Positions 33,961-61,611 of a stretch of DNA of 64,000 bases are shown in pieces. Within the stretch, counting starts at the first letter, position 1. Every line of letters begins with the position of its first letter. The notes under the pieces are model-generated. The model was not told where the DNA came from and did not search any database. It worked only from the letters and a program-made list of their open reading frames with translations. Source of the stretch: Patescibacteria group bacterium (GTDB lineage Bacteria; Patescibacteriota; Minisyncoccia; UBA6257; 2-01-FULL-56-20); contig JAGXBC010000002.1 of assembly GCA_018971305.1 (NCBI GenBank), positions 80,046 to 144,045 of the forward strand, written 5' to 3'. A program made the translations under genes and the position numbers.

Positions 33961-34032
33961 GCGCGCTTAGCTCAGTGGTAGAGCGTCACATTGACATTGT
34001 GAAGGCCGGAGGTCCGATCCCTCCAGCGCGCA
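33961..34032 (+). tRNA. tRNA-Val (anticodon GAC)
   Basis: Acceptor GCGCGCT/AGCGCGC, D-arm TAGCTCAGTGGTAGAGCG, anticodon loop TTGACAT, T-loop TCCGATC-like. Confidence 0.8.
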
Positions 34033-34135
34033 CACTCCAGTGATAGGTGTTTCAAGACCGTAAGATATGAGGTTCCTGGGCGTCCTTGAGCCTTGACCCT
34101 CTAGTACACTGAAACTCTATCACATGAAAATACCG

Positions 34136-34169
34136 CGACGAAATCGTCGCGGTATTTTCATCTCGGGCT
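34136..34169. terminator. Bidirectional intrinsic terminator: perfect palindrome GAAAATACCGCGACGA-AA-TCGTCGCGGTATTTTC flanked by A-run and T-run
   Basis: 16-bp stem; ends 12 nt before the stop of the minus-strand recombinase gene. Confidence 0.7.
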
Positions 34170-34180
34170 TTTCGTTCCGG

Positions 34181-35521
34181 CTACGATGTTTCCTGCGGCA
34201 TCAAGCTGATCACTCTATCTTTGAGCATCAATCGGCTCTTGAGATTTGATAGCAGTTCGCGCTTCTCCGTAATCGTGCCTTCCGTCAGGATATATATGGC
34301 GTAGGATTTGGCATCGAATATCTCCGGCTCAGCATTCTGTTCACGACTTTTGCCCAAGGCAACCCTCCGGAACTTGTTGTATCGCGTAATTTCGTCTTTG
34401 AATTTTTGCTTCACACCTAGCTCGTTCATATCAAGCGTGTCGAGCATCGCCACGATCTGTTCGATGATTTCCTCCTCTTTGATGTACCCGCATTGACAGT
34501 TCACGTCGCGCTTCTTCGTGCAGCCGTAGTAGACGTACCGATGGGTATTCCCGTTCTTCTGGTATTTCCATTTTTCCGATGCTGTGATGCCCGATCCGCA
34601 TAATCCGCACGTTATCAATTTCGTGAAGGCAAACTCTTTGTCGTTTTTTACCTCGCTCCGTTTCAATTGCTCCCGCGCCCGATCATACAGTTCTTTTGTT
34701 ATGAGCGGCGCATGGGCACCGGTATACCATTTCCCCGATCCTTCGGGGAATTCGAACGTGCCGTAGTAAAATGTTTTCTGCAGGATGATGAAGATGTTCC
34801 CGAGCGAGAGGAATTTCCCGTTCACAGTTTTGAACTTGATGTCGTTCTTTAGCCACACATAGAGCCGTCGTCCCGACCACTGCTCATTCGCGACTTTCTC
34901 GAACATCTGGCGGATGATAGGAGCACGGACAGGATCCACGATCACTTGGCACTTTCGATCTTTTCGTTTCTCGTTCAAGTAACCGGTGGGCGCGATACCC
35001 GGCCAGAGGCCTTGTTCGACGCGCGTTCGCAATCCTCGCTTCACATTCTCCGATTTGTTGTCATTCTCGAGTTTCGCTGTCGAGCACAGAATCATCAGCA
35101 TAAACTTCTCGCTTGGATTGTTTGTAAATTTCTGCGAGAAGGTTCTGATTTCCAAAAGTAGCTTCTGATCCATGAGATCGACGAGCGCACCGAGATCGCC
35201 CGCATTTCTTGAAAGGCGATCCGGCGCCCATGTGAGGATGCCTGTAAATTTGCCGGATCGGATATCAAGAACGAGCCCGTTGAAAACCTCTCTTTGCCCT
35301 ACGGCTTTGGCGGAATGGCTTTCCTTTCTGATCTCAGCGATCTCGAGTCCATCGCGTTCCGCGATCTTGATCATCTCCTTGATTTGGCTGTCTATTGAAA
35401 GGACTTGCTGTTCCTCGCTCTCTGTACTCTTTCTTGCATACAGACAGTAGGCGACCTTTACTGGCAGCGGCTGGTTGGTTGAGGTCGCCGCTCCTGCCGA
35501 CCCCTTAGTTTGGTTAGTCAT
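34181..35521 (-). CDS. Large serine recombinase (resolvase/invertase-type catalytic domain + recombinase domain + Zn ribbon)
   Basis: N-terminal catalytic motif YARKSTESEE...SIDSQ (Ser nucleophile), DRLSRN, C-terminal Cys cluster CGLCGSG...C...C; higher GC than surrounding genes by eye. Confidence 0.85.
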   Translation of the reverse strand: MTNQTKGSAGAATSTNQPLPVKVAYCLYARKSTESEEQQVLSIDSQIKEMIKIAERDGLEIAEIRKESHSAKAVGQREVFNGLVLDIRSGKFTGILTWAPDRLSRNAGDLGALVDLMDQKLLLEIRTFSQKFTNNPSEKFMLMILCSTAKLENDNKSENVKRGLRTRVEQGLWPGIAPTGYLNEKRKDRKCQVIVDPVRAPIIRQMFEKVANEQWSGRRLYVWLKNDIKFKTVNGKFLSLGNIFIILQKTFYYGTFEFPEGSGKWYTGAHAPLITKELYDRAREQLKRSEVKNDKEFAFTKLITCGLCGSGITASEKWKYQKNGNTHRYVYYGCTKKRDVNCQCGYIKEEEIIEQIVAMLDTLDMNELGVKQKFKDEITRYNKFRRVALGKSREQNAEPEIFDAKSYAIYILTEGTITEKRELLSNLKSRLMLKDRVISLMPQETS

Positions 35522-35617
35522 ACCCTAAGGGATGACGCAACCCCGCCCAGGAGTCCAGAGCGTCCTGGGAACCTCCCAAAACCCCTAAAATCTCTTATTT
35601 GCATTGTAAAAGGCCCT

Positions 35618-35637
35618 ATAACCTATGATAACCTATG
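35618..35637 (+). repeat. Tandem direct repeat ATAACCTATG x2 immediately upstream of the hsdM -35 element
   Basis: Direct reading; candidate regulator binding site. Confidence 0.45.
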
Positions 35638-35643
35638 AAGGTA

Positions 35644-35672
35644 TTGACTTTACAAAATAGATCGATTAGAAT
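35644..35672 (+). promoter_or_regulatory. Sigma-70-like promoter TTGACT-17-TAGAAT for the Type I RM operon
   Basis: Near-consensus hexamers with 17-nt spacer; the -10 ends 12 nt before the hsdM ATG. Confidence 0.55.
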
Positions 35673-35684
35673 AGGGTTAACGGT

Positions 35685-37367
35685 ATGCGTAAAGATATAC
35701 AAGCAAAACTCAAGGGAATGCCGGAATTGCTCTCTATCAGCCAGGTAGCTGAGATTTTTAATATTCACCCTGATACTCTCCGGAACTGGGAAAAGGACGG
35801 TATTTTAGTGCCCTTGCGGGCTGGTAAGCGCGGCGATCGCAAATACCGTCCGCAGGACATTCAGGCCATCGTGGACAAGATGGGCAGCAAACTCACCCTG
35901 CCGCAGCTTGAGCAGTTTCTTTGGAAGAGCGCCGATATTCTTCGCGGCAAGATTGATAGTTCCGATTATAAAAAATATATATTCGGACTTCTTTTCTACA
36001 AGCGTATCAGCGACGTATGGGACGAGGAATATAAGCGCGTCATGGAGGAATACAAAGATGAGACTATCGCGCGGGCCGACTACAACCATCGTTTTCAAGT
36101 ACCGCCGGATTGCCGGTGGTCTGTTATTGAGGAACAGGCGGAAAATATCGGTCCGAAGCTTAACGGAATTTTTGATAAGCTCACGAATGCAAACAGCCCT
36201 AAACTGGACAAAATTTTTGATGATCTCGATTTCGCCCATAAAGATAAATTTCCGAACGAAACTACTCAGCGTTTAATAAACCACTTCTCGCAATATAATT
36301 TTGGCGACACTTACATCAACTCCGACCTTCTTGGAGATGCATATGAATATCTCATAAAGCAATTCGCGGCTGATGCCGGAAAGAAAGGTGGGGAGTTTTA
36401 CACCCCGCGCGAAGTTGAGCGTGTCATCATCCAAATTCTTAATCCCCACAAGAAAGACCACATATATGATCCCACGGTTGGGTCCGGTGGTTTTTTGCTC
36501 GAAGCCTACCATCACTTAAAAGAAAAAGAGGGCGAGAAAATTGCTCGCACGCTCTATCTATATGGGCAGGAGATAAATATCAGCACGTTTGCGATTGCCA
36601 AGATCAACATGTTCCTCCATGGACTTGATGCAGCTGATATTCAACGCGGCGATACACTTGCAAATCCCCAATTTCTGAATCCGAACGGAACATTAAAAAC
36701 CTTCGACATCTGCGTGGCAAATCCCCCCTATTCAATCAGTGACTGGGAAAATGAAATGTTCAAAGAACGGTATGGCCGAGTGGAGGGATATGAAATACCG
36801 CCAAAAAGTAATGCTGACTACGCTTTCGTACTCCACATCATTAAGTCCATGAACTCAAACGGCCGAGCTGGTATCGTGTTGCCGCACGGTGTTCTATTCC
36901 GTGCCGGTGCCGAGGGACGCATCCGAGAGCAAATACTCAAAAACGACCTTATTGAGGCGGTGATCGCACTTCCACCCAAGCTTTTCTATGGCACTGGTAT
37001 TCCGGCGGCCATTCTCATCTTCAATAAAAACAAGTCAGACAGTCACAGGGGAAATGTCCTTATCGTTGACGCCGAGAAGGATTTTTCTGAAGGTAAAAAC
37101 CAGAATTCGCTCCGCGCACAAGACATTCAGAAAATCGTGAAGGCGTATGACAGCTACAGAGATGTCGAGGGCTATGCCCGCGTTGTTAGCCTCAAAGAAG
37201 TCGAGAAGAATGAATATAACCTCAACGTGCACCGATACATAGAAAATGGCGATAAAGAGGAGGAAATAGACGTATCTGTTGTTCGTAAGGAACTTACTGC
37301 GCTCGAGAAGGAACGCGCTGAGGCCGATATAAAAGTCGATGAATTTTTGAATGAGCTTAAATATTGA
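35685..37367 (+). CDS. hsdM: Type I restriction-modification system, methyltransferase subunit HsdM
   Basis: N-terminal HsdM_N, AdoMet motif I DPTVGSGGFL, motif IV VANPPYS. Confidence 0.9.
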   Translation: MRKDIQAKLKGMPELLSISQVAEIFNIHPDTLRNWEKDGILVPLRAGKRGDRKYRPQDIQAIVDKMGSKLTLPQLEQFLWKSADILRGKIDSSDYKKYIFGLLFYKRISDVWDEEYKRVMEEYKDETIARADYNHRFQVPPDCRWSVIEEQAENIGPKLNGIFDKLTNANSPKLDKIFDDLDFAHKDKFPNETTQRLINHFSQYNFGDTYINSDLLGDAYEYLIKQFAADAGKKGGEFYTPREVERVIIQILNPHKKDHIYDPTVGSGGFLLEAYHHLKEKEGEKIARTLYLYGQEINISTFAIAKINMFLHGLDAADIQRGDTLANPQFLNPNGTLKTFDICVANPPYSISDWENEMFKERYGRVEGYEIPPKSNADYAFVLHIIKSMNSNGRAGIVLPHGVLFRAGAEGRIREQILKNDLIEAVIALPPKLFYGTGIPAAILIFNKNKSDSHRGNVLIVDAEKDFSEGKNQNSLRAQDIQKIVKAYDSYRDVEGYARVVSLKEVEKNEYNLNVHRYIENGDKEEEIDVSVVRKELTALEKERAEADIKVDEFLNELKY

Positions 37368-37368
37368 T

Positions 37369-38508
37369 ATGGAAACAGCGCAGAGGATAATTCCGAAAGA
37401 ATGGAGTATAAAAAAGGTTGAAGACCTTTTTGAAATAGGCCGCGGAAGAGTTATTAGTAAAAAAGAGATTCAACAAAACCCGGGACCATTCCCAGTATAC
37501 TCTTCTCAGACTTCAAACGGTGGGGAGTTCGGGAAAATAGGAACCTATGATTTTGAGGGGGAATATTTAACATGGACTACTGACGGCATTTATGCTGGGG
37601 CAGTATTTTATCGGAACGGTAAGTTTAACTGTACAAACGTTTGTGGAACCTTAAAACCAAGAGGGCATATTGATGCTCGATTTTTCTCTTACCTGCTGCC
37701 GTTGTACGCAGGGCGGCATGTCGTAAGAACCGCTAATCCAAAATTGATGAACAATGTCATGGCAAGGGTTTCAATACCAGTCCCGCCAATTAAGGAACAG
37801 AAGAAGATTTCAGAAATTTTAGTGGCGGTTGATCGGATAATTCGAGGCACGGACGAGATTATCGCCGTTACGGGGAAACTTAAGCGAGGGCTAATGCAGC
37901 ATTTTTTTGCCAAAAGCGAATGGAATAGAAAAAAGATTGCTGATATTGCAGAAGTTGTCACCGGTGGTACCCCAAAAACATCGGTCCCAGAATATTGGGA
38001 TGGTTCAATCCGATGGATGTCATCCGGCGAGGTTAATCTAAGACGGGTCAGGGATACGGAAAAAATGATCACACAGAAAGGATTTGATAATTCTAACGCG
38101 CGAATGTTACCTCTTGGGACGGTAATGGTTGCGTTGGCTGGTCAGGGGAAAACTCGAGGGAAGGTAGCAATATTAGAAATTGAGACTACGTGCAACCAAT
38201 CTCTTGCCGGGATTATTCCGAACGCGAATCTTTTATCGAATGAATTTCTCTTTTACAACCTCGAATATCGTTACCAAGAACTGAGAGATATTAGCGGCGG
38301 CGAAGGTCGCGCAGGATTAAATCTAAAACTGATCAAAGAGTTTGTGGTTCCAGTCCCGCCACTACAGGAGCAGAAAAAGATTGCAACAGCCCTGACGTCA
38401 ATCGACAAAAAGATTTCAATCAACCAGAAATTAAAAGCCGAGCTTAATCTTCTCAAAAAAGGTCTCATGCAAGATCTTTTGAGCGGAAAAGTACGGGTAA
38501 CCATCTAA
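37369..38508 (+). CDS. hsdS: Type I restriction-modification system, specificity subunit HsdS (two TRDs)
   Basis: Two target-recognition domains separated by the conserved central repeat; ATG at 37369 sits 1 nt after the hsdM stop (translational coupling). Confidence 0.8.
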   Translation: METAQRIIPKEWSIKKVEDLFEIGRGRVISKKEIQQNPGPFPVYSSQTSNGGEFGKIGTYDFEGEYLTWTTDGIYAGAVFYRNGKFNCTNVCGTLKPRGHIDARFFSYLLPLYAGRHVVRTANPKLMNNVMARVSIPVPPIKEQKKISEILVAVDRIIRGTDEIIAVTGKLKRGLMQHFFAKSEWNRKKIADIAEVVTGGTPKTSVPEYWDGSIRWMSSGEVNLRRVRDTEKMITQKGFDNSNARMLPLGTVMVALAGQGKTRGKVAILEIETTCNQSLAGIIPNANLLSNEFLFYNLEYRYQELRDISGGEGRAGLNLKLIKEFVVPVPPLQEQKKIATALTSIDKKISINQKLKAELNLLKKGLMQDLLSGKVRVTI

Positions 38509-38512
38509 AGAT

Positions 38513-39859
38513 ATGAAAGATAACGGCATCATAGAAAAAATATATGACATCGCGACTAGCCATTTCCACAAATGGTATGGTCTTCTTTCCGCGCTTCTTT
38601 TAGAGGCCATTGTCCTGCTTTTCGTTTATGGATTGGTGCCGAAAGGAGAAGTTCCTTTTGGATGGTATGTCATGGGGATGTCTGTCGTAGCAATTATTAT
38701 ATTGGCCGGCTGGGCGTTTTACGTTTGGCATTATCCAAAACGATCGAAGGATCGACTTGGAGTTGCGATTGCAGTTCAAATCGAAAACTCTGAAGACGCA
38801 AAGTTTTTTAAAAAGGACTTCCTTACCCCATTTAAGAGCAAAATTCATGAGTTGGATTTGCCATTTGATGTCTTAGTACTTAGAAACCACCAGTCGGAGA
38901 CAATTGAGACGATTGAAGATGCCAGGCATGTTTTAAAGAAGACGCGGGCGCATTTCTGCATTTGGGGTTCGATAAAAAAGAGGAGTGGCGCTCCCGCCGG
39001 AGAAAAATATCTATTTTCACTTCGTGGCATCGTTATACACCGGCCGATACAAGAGGTTCAAAAAGTGCTTCTTCGCAAAGAGTTCGATGCGCTTTTGCCC
39101 AATACTGTAATTTTTGAGGAAAACTTGGAGTTTCAGGCTTTTGAGTTCAGGGCAAACCAAGCTGTTACTGCCCTCGACTATATTACCGGACGAGCTGCTC
39201 TTTTGTCCGGCGATTTCAATACCGCAATTCGTTTACATGAATCTTTGCTTAAAGCCATAGAAAGCGGTCAATCTTTTCCGATCAGTGAGGACGCCCTTAA
39301 GAAACTGCTTTCCCTCGAATACGACCAGAAGGCTGGCTTTGAATTTTTTAACCCCCCTGCCGCAGGTACATATCAGGAAAGTATACGGAAATCGCTTCAA
39401 TACGATCAGAATAATTACGGTGCGCTTCTGAAGAGGGCAATCGTTGAATTTAATAACGGTAACGGTGATGCGCGCATCGCCATGAATACAATCAAGGAAG
39501 CTAAAAATCACGCAGGCGGTGGCTACCACTGGTTATACAGCAAGGCATTTTTACACTTCTGGCTTGAAGAATATAATGATGCACTCCAGTGCTGTGAAAA
39601 ATTGAAGGAAAAAAGTTATGGCGGCGAAGAAATTACCGTGGCGGAAGTAATCCTTTTTAACGAGAACCTACTAAAGACTTACGATAAACCGCAATTATAT
39701 TATTGGCTTGGCTTTGTAAGTATTGTGAAAAATAAAAATCTTTCTATAGCTGATAAATACTTTCAGCAATTTCTGGAACATGCGAATGATTCTACGAAAG
39801 ATCTTAAAACACGCGCCGAGAGTTATCTCTCGAGCATCAAAAAGGAAATCGGCTACTAA
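38513..39859 (+). CDS. Unknown 448-aa protein embedded between hsdS and hsdR: 2 N-terminal TM helices + cytoplasmic alpha/beta segment + C-terminal alpha-helical (TPR-like) repeats
   Basis: Starts 4 nt after the hsdS stop and ends 1 nt before the hsdR ATG; TM segments LLSALLLEAIVLLFVYGLV and WYVMGMSVVAIIILAGWAFYVW; no P-loop and no Rx4-6H HEPN motif seen. Confidence 0.6.
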   Translation: MKDNGIIEKIYDIATSHFHKWYGLLSALLLEAIVLLFVYGLVPKGEVPFGWYVMGMSVVAIIILAGWAFYVWHYPKRSKDRLGVAIAVQIENSEDAKFFKKDFLTPFKSKIHELDLPFDVLVLRNHQSETIETIEDARHVLKKTRAHFCIWGSIKKRSGAPAGEKYLFSLRGIVIHRPIQEVQKVLLRKEFDALLPNTVIFEENLEFQAFEFRANQAVTALDYITGRAALLSGDFNTAIRLHESLLKAIESGQSFPISEDALKKLLSLEYDQKAGFEFFNPPAAGTYQESIRKSLQYDQNNYGALLKRAIVEFNNGNGDARIAMNTIKEAKNHAGGGYHWLYSKAFLHFWLEEYNDALQCCEKLKEKSYGGEEITVAEVILFNENLLKTYDKPQLYYWLGFVSIVKNKNLSIADKYFQQFLEHANDSTKDLKTRAESYLSSIKKEIGY

Positions 39860-39860
39860 T

Positions 39861-42773: not shown

Positions 42774-42774
42774 A

Positions 42775-43344
42775 ATGCAAAAACAGATCGCATTGCAAAA
42801 TAAGAAAGTCGCTTACATCCTCCGAAAAAGCAAACGGGCCCGGAGGATGCGCCTTGCGGTGTATTGCGATGGATCTGTTGTGGTGACGATGCCACACGAT
42901 CTTCAGGAAACTATCGCTGAGCGATTTATTCGAGAAAAAACCGAATGGCTATTTTCAAAGTTGGCGTTTTTCAAGCAATTTGAGGGCAAGCCGGTTGCAC
43001 GATATAGTCATGACGATTATCTCAAGTATAAGGATGGCGCTCTTGCGCTTGTCCAAGATAAAGTTAATCACTTCACCAGCCAGCACGGATACCGATATAA
43101 CAAGATCGCGATTAAAAATCAGAAGACGTGCTGGGGCAGCTGCTCCCGAAAAGCCAATCTGAATTTTAACTATAAGATCTTGTTTTTGCCAGAAAACATT
43201 CAGAACTATATCGTTGCACACGAACTGTGCCACCTAAAAGAATTCAATCACTCGAAACAGTTTTGGAAATTAGTGGCAAATGTAATACCGGAATATATGG
43301 AGATTCGTAATCAGCTCAAAAAGAGCGGGGTAAGTTTTTATTAA
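42775..43344 (+). CDS. DUF45/YgjP-like (SprT/WLM-like) zinc metallohydrolase
   Basis: YILRKSKRARRMRLAV..., WGSCS, and HELCHLKEFNHSKQFW (HExxH...NHS) typical of COG1451; begins 1 nt after the hsdR stop. Confidence 0.75.
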   Translation: MQKQIALQNKKVAYILRKSKRARRMRLAVYCDGSVVVTMPHDLQETIAERFIREKTEWLFSKLAFFKQFEGKPVARYSHDDYLKYKDGALALVQDKVNHFTSQHGYRYNKIAIKNQKTCWGSCSRKANLNFNYKILFLPENIQNYIVAHELCHLKEFNHSKQFWKLVANVIPEYMEIRNQLKKSGVSFY

Positions 43345-53367: not shown

Positions 53368-53369
53368 CT

Positions 53370-54332
53370 ATGTTCAAGAAAGCCAGACTCAAGCTCACTG
53401 CCTTTTATCTTCTCATCATCGTCGTGATCATCACGGCGTTCAGCTTGCTGCTATTCCGCTATACCGCCCAGCATCTGCGTGACAACATGGAAGAGGACTC
53501 TTCCCAGCGAGTCGCCGTTCTTGAACGGACAATCGGCGAACTGGGCTATGCCATCATCATCGCGGATGGCATCGTCATCGCATTTGCGGGACTTTTGAGC
53601 TACTGGCTTGCCGGAAGGACGTTGGAGCCGATTGGTGTTGCGCTTGAGGCGCAGGAGCAATTCAGCGCCAATGCTTCTCATGAATTGCGCACTCCCTTGT
53701 CCGTAGTAAAAAACGACGTCGAGGTTTTCTTGAAGAAACAACAGCCGACGATGGAGGATGCCAAAGCGGTTGCTTCGCGCAGTCTTGAAGAAATAGACCG
53801 CATGAGCGGCATGGTCGAAAACTTGCTCACGCTCGCACGCAGCAAGAAAACCGATGTTCCCATCGAACTTGAAGAAACCAATGTGGCAAAAGCCATAGAT
53901 GTCGCCGTGAAAAAACTCCAGCGTTCAGCCGAAGCCAAGCACTTATCGCTTGTCGTCAAAAAAGAAAACGTCGCCCTTGTGCTGGGTAACGAACGGCTGC
54001 TTGAACAATTATTTTTCAATCTGATCCAGAATGCCATCACGTATACCAAAGAAGGAAGTGTTACGGTGGCCATCACGGCTTCAAAAGTCGTTACCGTTCA
54101 AGTTGCAGATACCGGCATCGGCATTGATCAAAAAGAGCTCGGACACATTTTCGAGCCGTTTTATAAAGCGGATGCATCTCGTACCTCACGTTCCAATGGG
54201 GTTGGCCTCGGACTCGCGATCGTGAAAGAGATTGTCGATAAACATAAAGGATCCATCCAGGTCGAGAGCGCACCGGGCAAGGGCACCGAGGTTACGGTTA
54301 CGTTCCCTTTGTGGGATGAAAAGGCGTCATAG
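53370..54332 (+). CDS. Sensor histidine kinase, intramembrane-sensing type (two TM helices with a minimal extracellular loop)
   Basis: H-box SHELRTPL, N-box and G-boxes (DTGIGI, GVGLGLAIVK); short N-terminal 2-TM sensor. Confidence 0.8.
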   Translation: MFKKARLKLTAFYLLIIVVIITAFSLLLFRYTAQHLRDNMEEDSSQRVAVLERTIGELGYAIIIADGIVIAFAGLLSYWLAGRTLEPIGVALEAQEQFSANASHELRTPLSVVKNDVEVFLKKQQPTMEDAKAVASRSLEEIDRMSGMVENLLTLARSKKTDVPIELEETNVAKAIDVAVKKLQRSAEAKHLSLVVKKENVALVLGNERLLEQLFFNLIQNAITYTKEGSVTVAITASKVVTVQVADTGIGIDQKELGHIFEPFYKADASRTSRSNGVGLGLAIVKEIVDKHKGSIQVESAPGKGTEVTVTFPLWDEKAS

Positions 54333-54419
54333 TTCTGTCATATCCATCCTATAGGGTTAAAAATATATGCCTTTCGGTCGATAGGCATATATTATCAAAC
54401 AACTATCAACTTTTATGAT

Positions 54420-54764
54420 ATGAATAAAAAATTATTGATGCTCGTCGGACTCATCGCTCTCGTCGTTGGCGGAGCGAGCACTATCGCGTTTCAATCCCAC
54501 GCGCAGAAAGCGTCGGATCAATCGGGAACTACCGACACTTCGACCGTGACGGCCGCGCCGTCGCAGGAAAATAAAGCGGGCGATACCGATAATATCCAAG
54601 ACCAAAAAGGAGGCCCAGAAAAACCCGATGCCGCAATCTCGGAGAACGCTGACAAGGAAACTAACGACAGCCAGGATGCCACCTCGACGGTAAAACAAAG
54701 CGATTCACAGGATCACGGCGAAAGCAACGCTACCAGTACCGGTGAAACGGAAAACGGCGATTAG
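54420..54764 (+). CDS. Small secreted acidic low-complexity protein
   Basis: Signal peptide then D/E/S/T-rich sequence; followed by an intrinsic terminator. Confidence 0.45.
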   Translation: MNKKLLMLVGLIALVVGGASTIAFQSHAQKASDQSGTTDTSTVTAAPSQENKAGDTDNIQDQKGGPEKPDAAISENADKETNDSQDATSTVKQSDSQDHGESNATSTGETENGD

Positions 54765-54781
54765 CGAATCACTGAAATCAG

Positions 54782-54812
54782 AAAGCCCCGGCGGGAGCCG
54801 GGGCTTTTCTTA
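54782..54812 (+). terminator. Rho-independent terminator AAAGCCCCGGC-GGGA-GCCGGGGCTTT + TCTTAT
   Basis: 11-bp GC-rich stem with GNRA-like loop and U-rich tail, 18 nt after the stop. Confidence 0.65.
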
Positions 54813-54909
54813 TCCCGCAGACCTTAAAGAATTGTCATAAATGCGTCATTTCTAACTGTGAAGATAAAGGAGTCGTTATCTTATTATAAAAAACCAATAA
54901 AAAAATTTT

Positions 54910-55734
54910 ATGCCAGAAAGCCATACTGCGTCCTCGGTCGGCCATCAACTATTGCGGAAGGTTCCGCAAATCACGATCTTCTTTTGGATAATTAAAGTCC
55001 TCTGCACAACCGTTGGTGAAACCGCTGCGGATTTTTTGAGCACGAGCCTTAATCTCGGGCTGACTACGACCACGTGGATCATGAGCGCGCTCTTGATCTT
55101 CGTGTTGTTTTTCCAGTTCAAATCAAAAAAATACGTACCGGGGCTCTACTGGCTCGTGGTCGTTCTGATCAGCATCGTCGGCACCCAAATTACCGACAAC
55201 CTAACGGATAATTTGGGAGTTTCCCTAGCGACAACGACCATCATCTTCAGTATTGTCTTGGCAGTGGTTTTCGCGGTATGGTTCCTGATCGAAAAAACCT
55301 TGTCGATCCACTCGATTTATACGAGGCAACGAGAGGCATTCTACTGGTTAGCCATTCTCTTCACCTTCGCGGTGGGCACGGCAGCAGGAGATCTTGTGGC
55401 GGAAAAATTCGCCCTTGGATACCTTACGGCGCTAGGCATATTCGCCGGTTTGATTACAGTCGTGACTGCCGCGCATTATATCTTTAAAGCTATCTTGGGT
55501 ATGGAGCATAGGCATTTTTCCAGGAACGCAGTCTTGGCTTTCTGGCTGGCCTATATTCTGACGCGTCCTCTCGGTGCTTCAATCGGCGATTATCTCTCGC
55601 AAGCTCAAAGCGATGGTGGTCTAGGATTAGGAACTGTTGTGACCAGCGCAATCTTCCTTGGAGCAATTTTGATTACCGTTATCTACCTTACCGTCACGAA
55701 AAAAGACGTGGACAAGACTAAGGAACTGGCGTGA
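54910..55734 (+). CDS. Polytopic membrane protein with internal two-fold repeat
   Basis: Repeated segments IKVLCTTVGETAADFLS... / FTFAVGTAAGDLVAEKF...; ~8 TM helices. Confidence 0.5.
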   Translation: MPESHTASSVGHQLLRKVPQITIFFWIIKVLCTTVGETAADFLSTSLNLGLTTTTWIMSALLIFVLFFQFKSKKYVPGLYWLVVVLISIVGTQITDNLTDNLGVSLATTTIIFSIVLAVVFAVWFLIEKTLSIHSIYTRQREAFYWLAILFTFAVGTAAGDLVAEKFALGYLTALGIFAGLITVVTAAHYIFKAILGMEHRHFSRNAVLAFWLAYILTRPLGASIGDYLSQAQSDGGLGLGTVVTSAIFLGAILITVIYLTVTKKDVDKTKELA

Positions 55735-55746
55735 GAACTAACATAA

Positions 55747-56355
55747 ATGAATAAAAAAGTTATCGCCATATTCGTCATCACGATTGCTGCGCTCGCCATG
55801 CTGTGGGCATACGCGTTTGGGCCTCTTTCGGGAACGATAACCCCAAAAGCGAATCCCGCCTCACTTCAGCCGACCGCAACACAGACGACGGTGAATAACC
55901 AAAACGTCGCGTTCAATGCGTATCATAATCGCGATCTCGCGGAAAACTTCTATACGATCAAGTTCCCGCAAACGTGGCAATCGCAGTCGTCGACCCAAGT
56001 CGGGAGTTATCAATTCACATTCAGCAACGGGAGCGGCTCCGCGGGGCTTCAGGATGTAGCCGACAACACGACACTCGAACTGTTTGTTTTAAGCCAAGAT
56101 GAGCCGAATTTCAAAAAGACCGTTCCCGGATACAGTCGCATCAATTACCAGAAAATATCGGTGAACGGCAATGACGCATACCAGTTGACGTATCACAGCA
56201 CTGCGAGCGGCTCGGATTACGAGACGGTAAAGACATACATCGCAGGTGTGGATCATGCCGCCGTAATCACTCTCGCTGCGAAGCAGAGCGACTTCGCAAA
56301 TATGCAGCCGCTTTTCACATCCATCTTGAACAGCTTCCAATGGGAGAATAAATGA
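55747..56355 (+). CDS. Hypothetical exported protein (202 aa)
   Basis: Signal/TM anchor; no motif. Confidence 0.45.
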   Translation: MNKKVIAIFVITIAALAMLWAYAFGPLSGTITPKANPASLQPTATQTTVNNQNVAFNAYHNRDLAENFYTIKFPQTWQSQSSTQVGSYQFTFSNGSGSAGLQDVADNTTLELFVLSQDEPNFKKTVPGYSRINYQKISVNGNDAYQLTYHSTASGSDYETVKTYIAGVDHAAVITLAAKQSDFANMQPLFTSILNSFQWENK

Positions 56356-56356
56356 C

Positions 56357-56554
56357 ATGAGACAAATCTTCCTTTTCGTTTCGCTTGCGGTGTTGGGATT
56401 CGGATTCTACCTCAAGTTTTTCTATGACGTGCCCGACAGCCAGATCCAGATCAATTTCTTCGTGAGCTGGTTTTTAATCATCGTGGGCGGCGCAAGCATT
56501 TCGATGAATCTTTTCTGGAGCGGTTCCAAAAGGAAGAACAATAACGATGCCTGA
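56357..56554 (+). CDS. Small membrane protein (65 aa), overlaps the ABC ATPase start
   Basis: Two TM helices; ATGA-type coupling with the previous stop; 8-nt overlap with the next gene. Confidence 0.4.
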   Translation: MRQIFLFVSLAVLGFGFYLKFFYDVPDSQIQINFFVSWFLIIVGGASISMNLFWSGSKRKNNNDA

Positions 56555-57281
56555 CATTATTGCAGCGGAAAACTTGAGCAAATCGTATGGCAGTAACAAG
56601 GCCGTGGACGGGTTGAATCTTCATATCAAGAAAGGCGAGTTTTTTGGTTTCTTGGGACCAAACGGCGCAGGGAAGACCACGACGATTCGGATAATCACGG
56701 GGATTTTGAAGCCGGACAGCGGGACGGTCGCGATCGACGGCAACGCTTCGGGGGATAAACAAAAAATCGCGCAGACCATCGGCGTTATCCCAGAGAGTCG
56801 CGGCTTTTACGATTGGATGACCGCCGTTGAATATCTCGGATTTTTCGCGGATCTCTATGGGATCGCCGGAAAGGAAAAAGAGGGGCGAATCAATTCTTTG
56901 CTTACAGAAGTCGATCTTCTGAAGCGCAAGCATTCAAGAATAGGGACATATTCCCGCGGCATGCGGCAGCGCCTCGGCCTCGCGCGGGCGCTTATCAACA
57001 ATCCACAGATACTTTTTCTTGATGAGCCGACGCTCGGGCTTGATCCGCAGGGGCAGGAGGACATCCAGCTTCTCTTGAAAAAACTGAACACAAAAGGCGT
57101 TACCGTTTTTCTCTCGTCGCACCTTTTGAACGAGGTTTCAAATCTTTGCTCACGCATCGGAATTATCAATAACGGAGTTTTAATCGCCGAGGGCACTGTC
57201 AACGAATTGCGGGAGAAGACCAAGCTCGACAAAGACAAAACGCTTACCGACATTTTTCTCAATCTCACCCGCAACAACTAA
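56547..57281 (+). CDS. ABC transporter ATP-binding protein (ABC-2 type)
   Basis: Walker A GPNGAGKTT, signature YSRGMRQR, Walker B LFLDEPTLGLD. Confidence 0.85.
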   Translation: MPDIIAAENLSKSYGSNKAVDGLNLHIKKGEFFGFLGPNGAGKTTTIRIITGILKPDSGTVAIDGNASGDKQKIAQTIGVIPESRGFYDWMTAVEYLGFFADLYGIAGKEKEGRINSLLTEVDLLKRKHSRIGTYSRGMRQRLGLARALINNPQILFLDEPTLGLDPQGQEDIQLLLKKLNTKGVTVFLSSHLLNEVSNLCSRIGIINNGVLIAEGTVNELREKTKLDKDKTLTDIFLNLTRNN

Positions 57282-57286
57282 AACTC

Positions 57287-58057
57287 ATGTTCACTCACAT
57301 TTGGAAAAAAGAAATACGGGGAGAGCTCTATACATGGAAAAGCATGCTCTGGCTTGTGATCGCATCGCTCCTCTTTAGCTTCACGAGCTATCTGTTGCTT
57401 ACGAACCAGGAGCTAAGCCTCCTCGACCAGACGGAACTCCTGTGGCTTCTCGGCAAGATCATCATCGGGGTCGCGTTGCTCATCGTTACGATCGACGCTT
57501 CGTCCATCGTGAATGTTGAATTCGAAAAAGAAACAGCGGAGAGCTTATTTCTCTCGCCAATATCCCTCAAGGATCTCATCCTCGGAAAGCTTTTCGCTTC
57601 ACTGACGCTCTGGGCCGCAATCTTTGTTATATCAATCCCATATATCATCGTCACATCAGCGGGATCGCATCTCGCGTGGGCGTTCGTGGGCTATGTCGCA
57701 TTGCTTGGCACGCTCGGTGTCGTTGGGCTCGTTTTCCTGATCTTCGGGTTATCGCTTCTCTATCGCTCAAGCAAGAACACGATCACGACAGCACTCATCA
57801 TTCTGCTTGCTTTTGCCACGCCAGCGCTTTTCACCTCGACCCTCAAGAACGACATTGTTTCGCAAACCTTCAGCGTCGTGAATCCGATCGATAACATCTT
57901 CAATTCGCTCGATAACGTGCTCGTGGACTACAAAACATCCCTACTGGAGAATTGGCAGTTTCTTTTGCCGCTTATCATATTCTGCGCCGTCGCATTCCTT
58001 TTCCTGTTCGTGAGCGCGAAACGATTTACCAAGCAAGGGATTATCAAAAATGATTAA
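57287..58057 (+). CDS. ABC-2 family transporter permease
   Basis: Six TM helices; paralog of the 12661 gene. Confidence 0.65.
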   Translation: MFTHIWKKEIRGELYTWKSMLWLVIASLLFSFTSYLLLTNQELSLLDQTELLWLLGKIIIGVALLIVTIDASSIVNVEFEKETAESLFLSPISLKDLILGKLFASLTLWAAIFVISIPYIIVTSAGSHLAWAFVGYVALLGTLGVVGLVFLIFGLSLLYRSSKNTITTALIILLAFATPALFTSTLKNDIVSQTFSVVNPIDNIFNSLDNVLVDYKTSLLENWQFLLPLIIFCAVAFLFLFVSAKRFTKQGIIKND

Positions 58058-58586
58058 GCCGATGAAAAATATATTCTTTTTGTTCGCGCTCTTGATCTCG
58101 GCGGGCTTTGTGGCGAACGCACATGCGGCTGCACCACCGCTCACAATGCAAATCCTTTCATCGAGTAGCTTGAGCGGCACGGCGGGTGATTTCGTGACCG
58201 TACAAGGTCAGATTGCCAATACCGGATCGCAGCCACAGAGCGACGTCACGACATATCTTTCGCTTATGGATAATCAGAACAAGCTCCCCGTCGATCTCGA
58301 AGACTGGAGCGCGGAGAAAGGACTCTATATAGGAACGATCGATGCACATCAAACGCTCCCATTGAATTGGAAAATACATTTCGTAAAAGCCGGAACGTAT
58401 TCTCTCATCATTATCGCGGAGGCGTCGGGAAGCGACCTTCCGCAAGTAAGCAGTATCACTCAATTCAACGTGAGTCCGAAGCGGAACTTGAATCCCGGGC
58501 AGGTTTTGCCGGTCGCTCTTGGAACGCCGATCGTCCTTATTTTCATAATTTTTCTACTGGCCTACCGAAGGCGGGTGGAGGAATAA
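58050..58586 (+). CDS. Exported protein with C-terminal TM anchor and basic tail
   Basis: N-terminal signal peptide, C-terminal ...PIVLIFIIFLLAYRRRVEE. Confidence 0.45.
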   Translation: MIKPMKNIFFLFALLISAGFVANAHAAAPPLTMQILSSSSLSGTAGDFVTVQGQIANTGSQPQSDVTTYLSLMDNQNKLPVDLEDWSAEKGLYIGTIDAHQTLPLNWKIHFVKAGTYSLIIIAEASGSDLPQVSSITQFNVSPKRNLNPGQVLPVALGTPIVLIFIIFLLAYRRRVEE

Positions 58587-58615
58587 CGTTTAACAAAAAT
58601 TTTTTAGCTCCTCCT

Positions 58616-59434
58616 ATGGCAAAGCTTCAAAACAGCGGCAAAAAACATACAGAACACAAACAAGAAAACCGAATCGAAACAAAAGTTGCCGCGTTTTATG
58701 ATACCTACGACTACATCGCATTCTGGAAAGGAAGAGATTACGAAAACAAGGCGGACGTTATCGCCGTTTCAAAACTTCTCCGCAAGATTAAGAGTCCTCA
58801 TAAACGGATTATCGATATAGGCGTCGGAAGCGGCAGGATGGTGCCGCTGTATGAAAGCAAGTGGGATGCATGCGTCTTTCTTGATCCTTCGAATGTCCAG
58901 CTCGAGATCGCACGCCGGGCCGTAAAGGAACCGGAGAAAGCTACCTTTATGCAGGGCGCGGCGGAATCCATTCCTCTCCCCGATGGCGCATGCGACACTG
59001 CGCTCTGCACGAGGGCATTCCATTACGTCGATCAACCCGACCGCGCGATTGCGGAAATAGCACGCATTCTGGTGCCCGGTGGCTATCTTATTCTTGAAAT
59101 CCCGAACAAGGTGCATTTCAAGGCGAGGGTAGCCGCCTGGTTTTCGCCAAAGAAGCGTCAGGAGATATTCTCAAGAGATCCCGTGAGCCGTCTCGTCAAA
59201 GAGGTGGATATCGTTTTTCTCAATCACCATCCCGAAGCGATTGCCGTGGCCCTACAATCAAAAGGATTTGTTATCGAAAAAGTGCTTTCCGCATCCAACT
59301 TCAGGCATCCCTTGTTCAAGAAAATCATCCCCTTGGGCATTCTTCTCTTCGCCGAGCGTTTGCTCCAGAGGCCGCTTGCGGGAACATGGTTCGGGCCGAG
59401 CATCTATTTTTTGGCGAGGAAAATGAAAAAATAA
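58616..59434 (+). CDS. Class I SAM-dependent methyltransferase
   Basis: Motif I IIDIGVGSGRM, motif post-I/II ...LILEIPNK; start at the internal ATG (MAKLQN); the longer track ORF overlaps the previous gene. Confidence 0.65.
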   Translation: MAKLQNSGKKHTEHKQENRIETKVAAFYDTYDYIAFWKGRDYENKADVIAVSKLLRKIKSPHKRIIDIGVGSGRMVPLYESKWDACVFLDPSNVQLEIARRAVKEPEKATFMQGAAESIPLPDGACDTALCTRAFHYVDQPDRAIAEIARILVPGGYLILEIPNKVHFKARVAAWFSPKKRQEIFSRDPVSRLVKEVDIVFLNHHPEAIAVALQSKGFVIEKVLSASNFRHPLFKKIIPLGILLFAERLLQRPLAGTWFGPSIYFLARKMKK

Positions 59435-59448
59435 AACCGTTTTATTTC

Positions 59449-59760
59449 ATGAAGAAAACCTTCGTATCGATAATTCTTTTAACCTTTTTACTTGGCGGAG
59501 TTTCTTTTGCCCAAGCACAGAATTCTTCCTCCTCAACGAGTACGTTACGCTATCCAACGATCCACTTCCCGGGACAGATGCCGCCTCCTTCGCAAACCGG
59601 CGCGGCATCCCCGGCAAAGCATAAAACTTCGTCGAAAGCTAAACAGGCCAAGAAGCCAATTGTTAAGAAACCGACGAAGCCGAAAAAGAAGCTTGCCCCC
59701 AAGGTGAAAAAAGTTATAGGAGCCAAACCACCCAAACCGATCATAAAGAAAACCAAATGA
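59449..59760 (+). CDS. Small secreted protein with Lys/Pro-rich basic C-terminal tail
   Basis: Signal peptide MKKTFVSIILLTFLLGGVSFAQA, then KKPxKPKKK repeats; start at the internal ATG. Confidence 0.45.
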   Translation: MKKTFVSIILLTFLLGGVSFAQAQNSSSSTSTLRYPTIHFPGQMPPPSQTGAASPAKHKTSSKAKQAKKPIVKKPTKPKKKLAPKVKKVIGAKPPKPIIKKTK

Positions 59761-59776
59761 GGAAAATATAAATGAC

Positions 59777-60367
59777 ATGCGCCCGGCTTCCAAGAAATAT
59801 TATTATGTCGTCGCGGCCGCTGTTTTATTTTTCGTAGCTGCGGGCATGTTTTTGATCCCTCGGGTGATAACAGTTGTGCAAAAATCGGTTCCTCTGCCCA
59901 CCGCGATCGACCCCAATTTCTCAACGCAAGTGAACGAGTGCTTTATTCCGGTTGCTGCCGCGTACGGATATTCGCTGCGCATCGTATCGGGTTTCAGAAG
60001 CATGGCACAGCAACAGCAAGTATACGACCAAGGCAGATTGGAAAATGGAGTTGTCGTCTCGGAAGCATCGCCCGGACACAGCCTTCATAATTATGGTTTT
60101 GCCGTAGACGTCGCCGACATATGGAGAGGATATAATATCAACTGGCCAAGGCTTATCGCAATCGGCGCGTATTGCGGTTTGGGCAACGGCGGTGTCGGAG
60201 ATTATCCTCACTTTGAATACCGGGGCGGGCTTGTCACGGCGGATTTTGCCGCTGGCAAGAGGCCACCGCTGCTCACGCTCCCATGCGCGATTATGGACGC
60301 ACGGGCAAAAGCAAGCAAACCGCTAACGCTCAAAGATCTTCAGGGCTGCGCCGCCCCTAAATTCTAA
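59777..60367 (+). CDS. Peptidase M15 family (VanY/D-Ala-D-Ala carboxypeptidase or L-Ala-D-Glu endopeptidase-like) with N-terminal TM anchor
   Basis: SPGHSLHNYGFAVDV (SxHxxGxAxD) and upstream LRIVSGFRS...QQQ segment typical of M15; N-terminal hydrophobic anchor. Confidence 0.65.
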   Translation: MRPASKKYYYVVAAAVLFFVAAGMFLIPRVITVVQKSVPLPTAIDPNFSTQVNECFIPVAAAYGYSLRIVSGFRSMAQQQQVYDQGRLENGVVVSEASPGHSLHNYGFAVDVADIWRGYNINWPRLIAIGAYCGLGNGGVGDYPHFEYRGGLVTADFAAGKRPPLLTLPCAIMDARAKASKPLTLKDLQGCAAPKF

Positions 60368-60410
60368 CAAGGCATCGGACAGGCGAGTCGTATGGTGTTT
60401 TAGTATATTC

Positions 60411-61106
60411 ATGGATTTCGATAAAAGCATTGTTATTCTCAATCAATTACTTTCTGACGAAAACCCCGAGGCATTTAACAGCTCGTGGATTTTGAAGCAT
60501 GCGCCGAAGGTGTACCGCTTCATTTGGAAAAATGTCCGAACCGAAATTGGCACGGTAGACTGGGATCGCGTGACTTATGCGATCGAATGGAAATACCAGC
60601 GGCGATGGGCTCCAGGCAAGCAAAAGAAGAACATCGTTCCTTACGAGAATCCGGTCGAGGTTGAATCGATACTCAAAAAATATGAGGGCAAGACGTATGT
60701 CTTTGTCGCTCCCACTGATCTGAACGACCGCCGCGTTCGAGATATCATGAGTATCTCGCTCGTGCGGCTGGCGCAGAACGGCAATCTTTCAGCCAAAGAA
60801 GAATTGATGAAGCTTCTCGGTTACACAATTGCCGATTGGTTGGAACGTTTCTATTTCCTTTCTCGCTGGCAGGGATACGATGACCAAATTCGAGAAAATC
60901 TTGAGCGATGCATCCGCCGCTACCGCTACACCGGATCATTTGCGATGTATCTTTTTCGGACGCTTGAGTACGCAGGGCGTGGTATCCGGCCATTCTACGC
61001 GTATTCACTCGACAAGCCCGTCGCATGCGATGCTGAGAAGCGGATGATCGAGAACGTCGTCCAAGATACGGAAACAGGCGAGATACAGCTCTATGGCCGA
61101 GCATAA
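60411..61106 (+). CDS. Hypothetical protein (231 aa)
   Basis: ORF; no motif. Confidence 0.45.
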   Translation: MDFDKSIVILNQLLSDENPEAFNSSWILKHAPKVYRFIWKNVRTEIGTVDWDRVTYAIEWKYQRRWAPGKQKKNIVPYENPVEVESILKKYEGKTYVFVAPTDLNDRRVRDIMSISLVRLAQNGNLSAKEELMKLLGYTIADWLERFYFLSRWQGYDDQIRENLERCIRRYRYTGSFAMYLFRTLEYAGRGIRPFYAYSLDKPVACDAEKRMIENVVQDTETGEIQLYGRA

Positions 61107-61149
61107 ATTATCGCGCAGAAAATCGTGCGCAACTTTATCGGCTACAATC

Positions 61150-61360
61150 GGATATAATCGGCTATAGGTGGTATATCCGATTCCATTTTGGACTTATGGC
61201 CATTTCAGTTTTTGTACTGAATTGTTAAATAACTGAAATGACTATTTGTATGAAATGTTCCATTTTGGACAAAGTCCAAAATGCCCTCCGAGTGTCCAAT
61301 ATGTCCAAAATGGATGCGACCGCGAGGCTTCGGCCCTACCAAAATTTCCGAAAATGCCCT
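61150..61360. repeat. Iteron-like array: five copies of GTCCAA(A/T)ATGG / CCATTTTGGAC (61183-93, 61260-70, 61274-84, 61294-303, 61303-13) including the palindrome CCATTTTGGAC-AAA-GTCCAAAATG, plus inverted repeats CGGATATA/TATATCCG and CATTTCAGTT/AACTGAAATG
   Basis: Direct reading of an intergenic region between the 60411 gene and tRNA-Ile; the TTTTGGACA/TGTCCA core recurs in the palindromes at 48733-48798. Confidence 0.55.
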
Positions 61361-61539
61361 ATAATTTTTTCCAAACCCAGCGATCGGGAGGCCTCAAAAG
61401 AGAGGAGAAGAAAACCCTTGGAAACGCTTGTGTGGTTGCATCCAAAGAGGTCGCAGACCGCTAGGGGGCACCAGTTAGTTTGTCCTTTGAAGAAATAATA
61501 AAATAGAGTCGTATTGAAACAGCCCTATTTTATTTTTTG

Positions 61540-61611
61540 TGCGCATGGTAGGAATCGAACCTACGACCTCGTTCTTATCAGGAACGCGTTCTACCACTGA
61601 ACTACATGCGC
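61540..61611 (-). tRNA. tRNA-Ile (anticodon GAT)
   Basis: Reverse complement folds: acceptor GCGCATG/CATGCGC, D-arm GTTCAGTGGTAGAAC, anticodon loop CTGATAA, T-loop TTCGATT. Confidence 0.8.

Follow-up and report, generated by a model that had tools for sequence, protein, structure and literature searches.

A probable single 27.4-kb integrative island with two large serine recombinases at the 3' end of a tRNA-Val gene in a Patescibacteria group bacterium

The DNA considered here (the window) is a stretch of 64,000 nucleotides of contig JAGXBC010000002.1, from a Patescibacteria group bacterium; positions are those of the window unless another locus is named. Between a tRNA-Val(GAC) gene and a tRNA-Ile(GAT) gene, whose 3' ends (ARAGORN, Rfam) both point toward the DNA between them, it contains two large serine recombinase genes, called Rec1 and Rec2, a type I restriction–modification (R-M) system next to a KAP NTPase gene, a phage-type terminase module, and a second block of cargo genes (Table 1). 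An earlier note, made from the letters alone, had interpreted this region as two independently acquired elements integrated back to back, each with its own recombinase and its own tRNA. The comparisons described below make it likely that the segment from 34034 to about 61473 is instead one 27.4-kb integrative island, inserted by Rec1 at the 3' terminus of tRNA-Val(GAC).

Several observations of the earlier note are confirmed. The two recombinases are complete and paralogous (53% identity over 432 aa, E 3e-159), and the N-terminal motifs that had been quoted for them are present verbatim. Both proteins have the catalytic motifs YARKST/YARKSS (Y-x-R-x-S) and APDRLSRN (DRLSR); the Resolvase domain PF00239 is detected with E-values of 1.6e-19 in Rec1 and 5e-21 in Rec2, and the domains Recombinase PF07508 and Zn_ribbon_recom PF13408 exceed the gathering score in both. 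The closest solved relative of Rec1 is the integrase of SPbeta, YokA/SprA (E 4e-15, spanning residues 30-382). Domain searches found no tyrosine recombinase (phage-integrase domain) among the island proteins. The genes of Rec1 and Rec2 are divergent and 11.3 kb apart; the description of the pair as outward-facing is right for Rec1, which is at the edge of the island, but Rec2 is in the middle of it and faces outward only relative to the R-M/KAP block.

The mosaic base composition, which had been judged by eye, is borne out by GC values in 2-kb windows and by tetranucleotide distances. The GC content of the host is 0.464 ± 0.015, that of the Rec1 block 0.501, that of the R-M/KAP block 0.429 (with a minimum of 0.40, z −4.3), and that of the segment from Rec2 to orf126 0.505; it is 0.490 between 52.6 and 61.06 kb and falls to 0.43–0.45 past 61.06 kb. 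The tetranucleotide distance of the island from the host gives z = 2–8.5 throughout.

The near junction of the island is at the last bases of tRNA-Val, at about 34032/34034. The spacer that follows is kept in 23 non-identical relatives, whose tRNAs are those of Val, Arg, Leu and Lys, and its conservation reaches the discriminator base; since this is so whichever tRNA adjoins, the junction must be at the last bases of the tRNA. A profile of this near end matches the window at 34026-34158 (E 3e-22), which is the sole strong copy, and Rfam gives no match in the spacer. A hairpin occurs at the position of the palindrome 34124-34161 in all the relatives that were aligned; this palindrome would be a bidirectional terminator for the transcripts of Rec1 and tRNA-Val.

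The far junction, at 61471-61473, is located 68 nt before the 3' end of tRNA-Ile, so that the limits of the accessory mobile region are nearly those that had been proposed. It was found by comparison with relatives: an arm search seeded by the far end of the L044 type (described below) gives one strong match in the window, TGCCCCCTAGCGGTCTGCGACC at 61449-61470 on the minus strand. A profile made from seven far ends also has a single copy in the window (61250-61470, E 1.6e-52), and it matches the loci L010, L011, L022, L023, L036 and L044/46/76 with E-values of 1e-31 to 1e-52; it found L011 and L053/54, neither of which had been used to build it. In L022, L036 and L044, which are all in the profile, only a Rec1-like recombinase was detected; L023 additionally holds the truncated recombinase remnant of an older element. 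The occurrence of these far ends in loci with only a Rec1-like recombinase indicates that the far end of the window pairs with Rec1, not with Rec2. We infer that it was Rec1 which integrated the island as a whole.

Direct repeats of the tRNA 3' ends, whose search had been proposed as a check, are ill-suited to serine recombinases. When copies of the 3' ends of tRNA-Val and tRNA-Ile and of the near-junction arm were searched, none was found under 6–8 mismatches in 24; for the tRNA-Val 3' end, the closest match within the island has 8 mismatches in 24. One match with 8 mismatches, at 61448-61471, is the real far arm, which was recognised only through the comparison of relatives. In a general repeat search of the island, the only repeats were inverted ones formed by the coding sequences of the two recombinases (72% over 206 nt), and there was no signature of an invertible segment. 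The open reading frame orf86 (61238-61498, 86 aa) was rejected as a probable non-gene: it lies in the conserved non-coding far end and its sole homologue is the equivalent DNA of L010.

The same island is present in a distant host. A homologue of Rec2 (80% identical) led to the loci L008/L009, in which the order is DprA, orf176, orf71, tRNA-Val, Rec1, different genes, Rec2, TerL, TerS, ParB-methylase and orf126, and the contig Ga0209515_10000160, on which L092 and L014 overlap, has a 27.1-kb island between tRNA-Ile and tRNA-Val. The proteins of the framework are 92% (Rec1), 81% (Rec2), 91% (TerL), 93% (TerS) and 90% (ParB-methylase) identical to those of the window, as against 54% for orf176, 62–63% for DprA and 70% for TopA, which are host proteins. 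The nonsynonymous divergence (dN) is 0.05–0.11 for island genes versus 0.32–0.35 for host genes, and dN/dS is 0.04–0.11 for Rec1, Rec2, TerL, TerS and the methylase (0.045 for Rec1 compared to its L008 copy). The low dN of the island relative to the host, together with the low dN/dS, shows that the framework genes are functional and have moved between lineages, and that they are not relics. The DNA similarity to L008 is limited to 33960-35566 and 46773-52548. The island thus consists of a conserved framework, made up of the near end with Rec1, of Rec2 with TerL, TerS and the ParB-methylase, and of the far end, in which at least two bays of variable cargo are set, and this explains the GC mosaic without two integrations at the tRNA-Val/tRNA-Ile site.

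Both island ends are 81–100% identical across L008/L013/L092, in hosts whose flanks have no DNA similarity. The far arm of L092 is located where it had been predicted, on the predicted island side: 61062-61476 of the window and 3733-4145 of L092 are 86.6% identical over 418 nt, and the similarity ends at TGG/TGCCCCC. The 26-nt far arm (3739-3764 in L092) is identical in the two, while the host-side arms are unrelated. In L092, 128 nt separate tRNA-Ile from the far junction and its 5' end faces the island, whereas in the window the distance is 68 nt and it is the 3' end that does so. Since this far end adjoins the 5' side of tRNA-Ile in L092, the tRNA, which had been taken for an anchor, is a bystander. 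It is a neighbour, not a target, and the island is attached to tRNA-Val only, although it lies between the two tRNAs in both hosts.

Two further observations concern the far end and the tRNA-Val site. The motif TTTTGGAC has 11 copies in the window versus 3.6 expected; four of them cluster as palindromes (for example CATTTTGGACAAAGTCCAAAATG) in the far end, at 61186-61310, a stretch which is nearly identical in L092, and another site is at 48747-48754. These palindromes could be binding sites for a protein, with a directionality factor, a regulator or packaging as candidates. In the distant relative L003, which has no island, tRNA-Ile, one HAD-type gene and tRNA-Val are found in the same orientation within 1.3 kb. 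A pseudo tRNA-Val 3' end (GCAGGTCCGATCCCTGCATCGCGCAC) lies 55 nt downstream of its tRNA-Val (8840-8935 of L003), and this fragment suggests a scar of past use of the same site.

Table 1. Features of the region between tRNA-Val and tRNA-Ile, in window coordinates
Feature	Position	Strand	Remarks
tRNA-Val(GAC)	33961-34033	+	ARAGORN, Rfam; CCA not encoded
Near-end conserved spacer	34034-34123		includes presumed attP-derived arm ...GGTCTTGAAACACCTATCACTGGAGTG (- strand); abuts last bases of the tRNA
Perfect palindrome, 18+18 nt	34124-34161		flanked by A/T runs; putative terminator
Rec1, large serine recombinase	34181-35521	-	446 aa; tRNA-proximal end
Conserved Rec1 5' leader	35522-35566		homology with the relative's island ends at 35566
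Variable cargo 1	35567-46772		GC 0.43; wholly replaced in relative
HsdM	35685-37367
HsdS	37351-38508
Transmembrane/TPR protein	38513-39859		448 aa
HsdR	39780-42773
YgjP-like peptidase	42775-43344
KAP NTPase	43377-45914		related to PifA/QatA defence proteins
Membrane protein	45967-46701	-
Rec2 leader with hairpin and T-run	46755-46835	+	about 75 nt conserved
Rec2, large serine recombinase	46806-48695	+	629 aa from GTG or 619 aa from first ATG
Two palindromes between convergent Rec2 and TerL	48729-48803		dyad symmetry roughly kept in L008 despite sequence change
Phage-type module	48864-52597	-	conserved
TerL	48864-50351	-
TerS-like protein	50314-50763	-
ParB-N/DNA methylase fusion	50756-52147	-
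orf126	52217-52597	-
Cargo 2	52601-61061	+	GC 0.49
Response regulator	52696-53367
Histidine kinase	53370-54332
orf114
DUF347 protein	54910-55734
PsbP-like protein			follows the DUF347 protein
ABC ATPase	56547-57281
ABC-2 permease	57287-58057
orf178
SAM methyltransferase	ending 59434
orf124
VanY-like peptidase	59777-60367
orf231	60411-61106
Far-end conserved non-coding region	61062-61473	-	about 410 nt
Far-end terminal arm	61449-61470	-	TGCCCCCTAGCGGTCTGCGACC
Host flank	61474-61611	-	65-nt spacer (presumed attB outer arm and terminator-like hairpin), tRNA-Ile(GAT)
tRNA-Ile(GAT)	61539-61611	-	ARAGORN, Rfam

The position of Rec1 next to a tRNA is a property of its family. A metagenome scan with Rec1 gave 80 loci (57–92% identity), of which 62 are evaluable and non-duplicate. 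A convergent tRNA is found at most 300 nt from the recombinase stop in 27 of these 62 loci, at a median distance of 125 nt, and in 18 of 26 when the identity is at least 72%; in five further loci an extra open reading frame is present between the recombinase and the spacer, and the spacer still abuts the tRNA. The downstream tRNA is convergent in every locus where one was seen (n=46), and the tRNA density, even in this enriched set of loci, is 0.1 per kb. The tRNAs represent at least 14 anticodon types: Val-GAC, Val-CAC, four Arg, Leu-CAA, Lys-TTT, Gln, Trp, Asn, Glu and two Ser. When the DNA between recombinase and tRNA is aligned, a terminator hairpin is followed by a conserved spacer of about 90–100 nt. 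The link between serine recombinases and tRNAs, to which the earlier note had drawn attention as unusual, is both real and unusual.

Some of these loci give information about the far end. L044, L076 and L046 come from one host (99.9% identical) and diverge at exactly position 4008, where a 7.5-kb Rec1-like element inserted at tRNA-Lys has its far end. The L044-type far end TGCCCCTACACGGTCTAGAACC resembles the 3' end of this tRNA-Lys, TGCCCCCAGAAGGAATCGAACC, and in six elements the far arm matches the tRNA arm at 13–18 of 26 positions, where about 6.5 are expected; at the level of sequence, the far arm resembles a tRNA 3' end. In L046, the recombinase spacer of a second, complete element abuts the far arm, 139 nt after the stop of that recombinase (3869-4030), and in L023 (2739-2924) a recombinase–spacer unit is joined to the far arm of another element, with a truncated older copy. 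Tandem accretion therefore occurs in these two relatives. L065 has an attP-like junction (4270-4400), which could belong to an excised form or to an array.

From what is observed (the ends, the homology of ends and framework with those at this site in a distant host, the tRNA association of the family, and purifying selection on the framework genes), the following mechanism can be proposed. Rec1 would recombine attP, which consists of two element arms, with attB, which would consist of the acceptor/T-arm of the tRNA and its trailer; that Rec1 catalyses this reaction is presumed. The identity between the two junctions is limited to TGC(CCC), and the crossover would take place within the shared TG(C), which corresponds to positions 72-73 of the tRNA, the exact position being presumed as well. 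A crossover at the terminal bases would keep the tRNA intact and would form no long direct repeat. The near junction would then associate an element arm with the tRNA acceptor/T-arm, and the far junction the host flank with the tRNA-like arm of the element. The reconstructed attP would read ...GGTCTTGAAACACCTATCACTGGAGTG/TGCCCCCTAGCGGTCTGCGACC... (junction form CACCTATCACTGGAGTG/TGCCCCCTAGCGGTCTGCGACC) and the reconstructed attB ...CAAAGGACAAACTAACTGG/TGCGCGCTGGAGGGATCGGACC... (empty-site form GGACAAACTAACTGG/TGCGCGCTGGAGGGATCGGACC). If one recombinase binds all four half-sites, the far arm is expected to resemble a tRNA 3' end, and because it looks like one, another element can land there.

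The recombinase family has at least 8000 database proteins at E ≤ 1e-30. We would tentatively generalise as follows, knowing that the proposal is open to doubt: a large and apparently Patescibacteria-centred family may use the terminal bases and the acceptor/T-arm of tRNAs as an attB half-site, with a tRNA-mimicking attP arm, which would allow retargeting and stacking; its elements may be the main shuttles of defence and cargo genes in these tiny genomes, many of them being terminase-bearing, capsid-less satellites and some having a second recombinase, with a new C-terminal fold, for a different reaction.

The terminase module of the island is intact. TerL matches phrog_38 (E 1.5e-76) and is about 26% identical to known phage terminases (DMS3/MP38-like TerL), the TerS-like protein matches a terminase small subunit of PHROG, and the ParB-methylase matches phrog_498. 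The dN/dS of these three genes is 0.04–0.06. The last gene of the module, orf126, is weakly constrained (76–81% amino acid identity to L008, dN/dS 0.36), and a 142-aa open reading frame antisense to it (52236-52664) is probably not a gene. Searches of the island's open reading frames with PHROG and Pfam gave no match to a capsid, portal or tail family, and no repressor or replication gene was recognised in the island. The order ParB-methylase, TerS, TerL, recombinase is frequent in more distant relatives. The L054 element, for instance, measures about 8.6 kb from its far end to the recombinase end and is devoid of structural genes; to judge from sequence motifs, it would encode an XRE/ImmA-type pair and an M23 peptidase. 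The locus L096 encodes a LexA/S24-like repressor (Pfam).

Intact and selected terminase genes in the absence of virion genes suggest packaging into the capsids of another phage. It is possible, though we hold this with little confidence, that the island would travel in the capsids of a helper phage, as satellites do. Like phage-inducible chromosomal islands (PICI), the island has an integrase and packaging genes (TerS and TerL) with no virion module; its 27.4 kb exceed the typical size. The locus L007 (IMGVR_UViG_3300025154_002045) combines methylase, TerS, TerL, a type I R-M system, a serine recombinase and Cap15, an effector of the cyclic-oligonucleotide-based anti-phage signalling system (CBASS). 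It is listed as viral in IMG/VR, where it is the one relative of TerL that was found, and looks like the same kind of island, not like a demonstrable phage.

Other explanations of the region have to be weighed against a single island inserted by Rec1. The reading of the earlier note, in which Rec1 and the R-M/KAP block form one element at tRNA-Val, and Rec2 and all that follows to 61.1 kb another one at tRNA-Ile, is improbable in our opinion. It would fit the three GC regimes, the two tRNA 3' ends that face the island, the tandem accretion seen in L046 and L023, the separate assortment of the Rec2 module and the TerL type in L010 and L011, and the fact that the homology to L008 breaks on both sides of the R-M block, near the start codon of each recombinase. 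The window has, however, a single near-end sequence and a single far-end sequence according to the profile searches, and neither a far end nor a spacer between 35.5 and 48.9 kb. The far end at 61.4 kb is of the kind found with only a Rec1-like recombinase, and similar far ends lie beside the 5' side of tRNA-Ile in L092 and abut the 5' end of tRNA-Val(TAC) in L011. Rec2 is 12.8 kb away from tRNA-Ile, toward which it points from the middle of the island, as compared to about 125 nt in the family, and a distant host has the entire layout with two recombinases, as one unit, at this very site. An ancient nesting or accretion is a more serious possibility, even if we still find it rather unlikely: an element consisting of Rec2 and the terminase genes, or of Rec2 and cargo, would have been captured in a Rec1 island, its att sites would have decayed, and the whole would now move by means of Rec1 only. 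The many relatives with a collinear ParB-methylase, TerS, TerL, recombinase unit, in which one recombinase is beside TerL, speak for such a history, as do the unit of this type that is parked against the far end of another element in L046, the GC mosaic, and the fact that Rec2 is a discrete module (a 75-nt leader and the gene). Rec2 is nevertheless inverted relative to the usual order from TerL to recombinase, searches of the island did not find a relic att sequence, and a dN/dS of 0.11 points to a current function of Rec2 rather than to a relic. Nesting or accretion would in any case be a matter of history, compatible with a single island as far as present mobility is concerned. Several facts count against the single island itself. 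Tandem arrays exist in relatives, and two elements could have fused long ago to give the framework. The tRNA-Ile gene is inverted relative to both L092 and L003, so that the far flank has been rearranged in one lineage, and the host-side arms at the far junctions of the window and L092 share only about 7 of the 10 nt next to the core. Homologues of the response regulator, the histidine kinase and the SAM methyltransferase of cargo 2 are found near DprA in L004, at host-like identity. No recombination sites of Rec2 were found in the island search, this exact island yielded neither an empty site nor an excised circle nor an attP, and neither the attP junction nor the far-arm 22-mer was found in IMG/VR. 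A DprA scan of GTDB gave only four distant relatives (51–59%) and no close island-free genome.

That the region is a decaying prophage, of which the integrase, the terminase, the ParB-methylase and a VanY-like lysin would be the remains, all else being host DNA or junk, is very improbable. The PHROG matches of TerL, TerS and the ParB-methylase, the similarity of TerL to DMS3/MP38-like TerL, the match of the VanY-like protein to endolysin PHROGs, and the listing of a related locus as viral in IMG/VR all agree with this idea; but no capsid, portal or tail gene lies within the mapped ends, the layout without structural genes is kept in a distant host under purifying selection (dN/dS 0.04–0.06) and recurs in many loci such as L054, and the IMG/VR locus in question, L007, itself consists of R-M and CBASS cargo beside TerL and a recombinase. 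It is highly improbable, finally, that the site is a fixed chromosomal defence hotspot, with Rec1 and Rec2 as resident genes that serve as homology arms or invertases and with cargo that is swapped through homologous recombination following natural transformation, in the absence of site-specific mobility. Near-identical recombinase-plus-spacer units are found at 14 types of tRNA in unrelated contexts, and the island ends are 81–100% identical in hosts whose flanks share no DNA similarity, even though cargo 1 has been cleanly replaced between conserved recombinase genes, DprA and pilin genes are located near the island in the window, and no excised form was seen. Homologous exchange may explain the turnover of cargo within islands.

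Under the reading that we prefer, that of a single island moved by Rec1, the function of Rec2 has to be considered separately. Rec2 is about 12.8 kb from either end of the island, and many members of the family manage with one recombinase. It is under purifying selection (dN/dS 0.11), is convergent with TerL in the four closest contexts, and assorts separately from the type of TerL (L010, L011). Its C-terminal extension of about 180 aa (48156-48695) is conserved and contains a CxxC...CxxC zinc ribbon and an all-beta domain; the predicted structure of this part has a pLDDT of 83 and gives no Foldseek match in the PDB below E 0.06, and no PDB sequence match was found either. The leader of Rec2 has a hairpin about 30 nt before the start codon, at the same position and with a different sequence in four of four Rec2 contexts; it resembles a terminator or attenuator that may guard the expression of Rec2. 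The palindromes between Rec2 and TerL are read as a probable bidirectional terminator. As for att sites specific to Rec2, only this terminator (not conserved in L010/L011) was found downstream and only the 75-nt leader upstream, with no att-like sequence, and the ends of cargo 1 share nothing between the window and L008. A second integration specificity, the rearrangement of a cargo bay and the resolution of concatemers are candidate roles. A search of IMG/VR with Rec2 gave no match, and the locus of a more distant relative (L096, 67% identical) has a different layout, with no tRNA and no profile match.

Integration into tRNA genes is typical of tyrosine integrases, and the known elements with a large serine recombinase are described as integrating into protein-coding genes or intergenic sites. 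The island resembles phiC31, Bxb1, TP901-1 and SPbeta (SprA) in its three-domain recombinase, in the location of the integrase at one end, in the imperfect att arms and in the absence of long direct repeats; it differs from them by its target, the terminal bases of a tRNA, by its tRNA-like attP arm, and by the existence of relatives that are 76–92% identical and located at different tRNAs. With the tRNA islands of tyrosine integrases it shares the position at the tRNA 3' end, the preservation of the tRNA, tandem accretion and stray tRNA-3'-like fragments, but the enzyme family and the chemistry are different and there is no duplicated core of tens of bases. The staphylococcal cassette chromosome SCCmec also has two paralogous large serine recombinases (ccrA/ccrB) and is inserted at the very 3' terminus of a conserved gene, rlmH, which it leaves active; its two recombinase genes are neighbours with the same orientation and work together, unlike Rec1 and Rec2, which are divergent and 11 kb apart. 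The tycheposons of Prochlorococcus are similarly tRNA-associated, modular and cargo-carrying, occur in streamlined genomes, and are in some cases satellite-like. They overwhelmingly use tyrosine recombinases and have replication modules, whereas the present family is defined by its serine recombinase and is found in bacteria of the candidate phyla radiation (CPR), and whereas the island has TerL, TerS and the ParB-methylase and no recognisable replication genes; 27 of 937 tycheposons carry a large serine recombinase (bioRxiv 10.1101/2020.12.28.424599). Phage satellites (PICI, cf-PICI, Vibrio PLE; PMC6002521) are, like the island, compact elements with an integrase, one or several packaging genes and defence cargo, and Vibrio PLE uses a large serine recombinase. 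Unlike them, the island has both TerL and TerS without capsid genes, no recognised gene for replication or capsid remodelling, no known helper, and a length of 27 kb, above that of a typical PICI. The largest survey of serine-integrase targets does not mention tRNA (PMC10083194), and the literature that was searched gave no description of tRNA-targeting serine integrases. While the enzyme and elements of this general kind are known, that literature did not mention the tRNA target, the tRNA-like arm or the apparent abundance of the family in CPR bacteria.

If the family does read tRNA ends, this would explain how CPR genomes of about 1 Mb, which have few known mobile elements, gain and exchange defence and other accessory genes. 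It would also allow retargeting from one tRNA species to another by few changes and the stacking of elements on each other's tRNA-like ends, and the close relatives at 14 tRNA types would be a natural series for studying shifts in the specificity of serine integrases. Unidirectional integrases with natural sites in every genome could be of use for engineering uncultivated or intractable bacteria and for tool design. The capsid-less terminase module raises the idea that CPR bacteria host phage satellites.

Regarding the cargo, the type I R-M system is complete, HsdM, HsdS and HsdR being all full-length (Pfam, PADLOC), and HsdM has an N-terminal MerR-type helix-turn-helix (MerR/HTH_17 domain). 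The 448-aa membrane and TPR protein encoded between hsdS and hsdR has a counterpart with 34% identity at the same position in L007 (9390-10727). The ABC block of cargo 2 recurs in two other loci: within the far end of the element in L011, and in L032 at a distance of about 6 kb on the upstream side of a Rec1-like gene. The right-hand block of the relative, from LytR_C to a PAS kinase, has a counterpart in L020 with 75% nucleotide identity, immediately upstream of a Rec1-like gene that is located at tRNA-Arg. Part of cargo 2 may be captured DNA of host type, to judge from the homologues in L004 mentioned above. Exact-protein look-ups with orf176 and with Rec1 gave nothing but short contigs that have this same arrangement.

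Two minor observations were made outside the island of the window. In L092, just past tRNA-Ile (1-3376), a reverse transcriptase, a bAvd protein and an FGE-sulfatase/N_methyl protein, the putative target, are encoded, and this segment looks like a diversity-generating retroelement. At 22007-22030 of the window, a stray 24-nt 3' end of the tRNA-Leu(CAA) type (AAATTCGACTCCCACCCCGGGCAC) directly follows tRNA-Leu(TAA) (21922-22006); the actual tRNA-Leu(CAA) is 700 nt from this copy, on the other strand, and the stray copy looks like the scar of an old attachment site.

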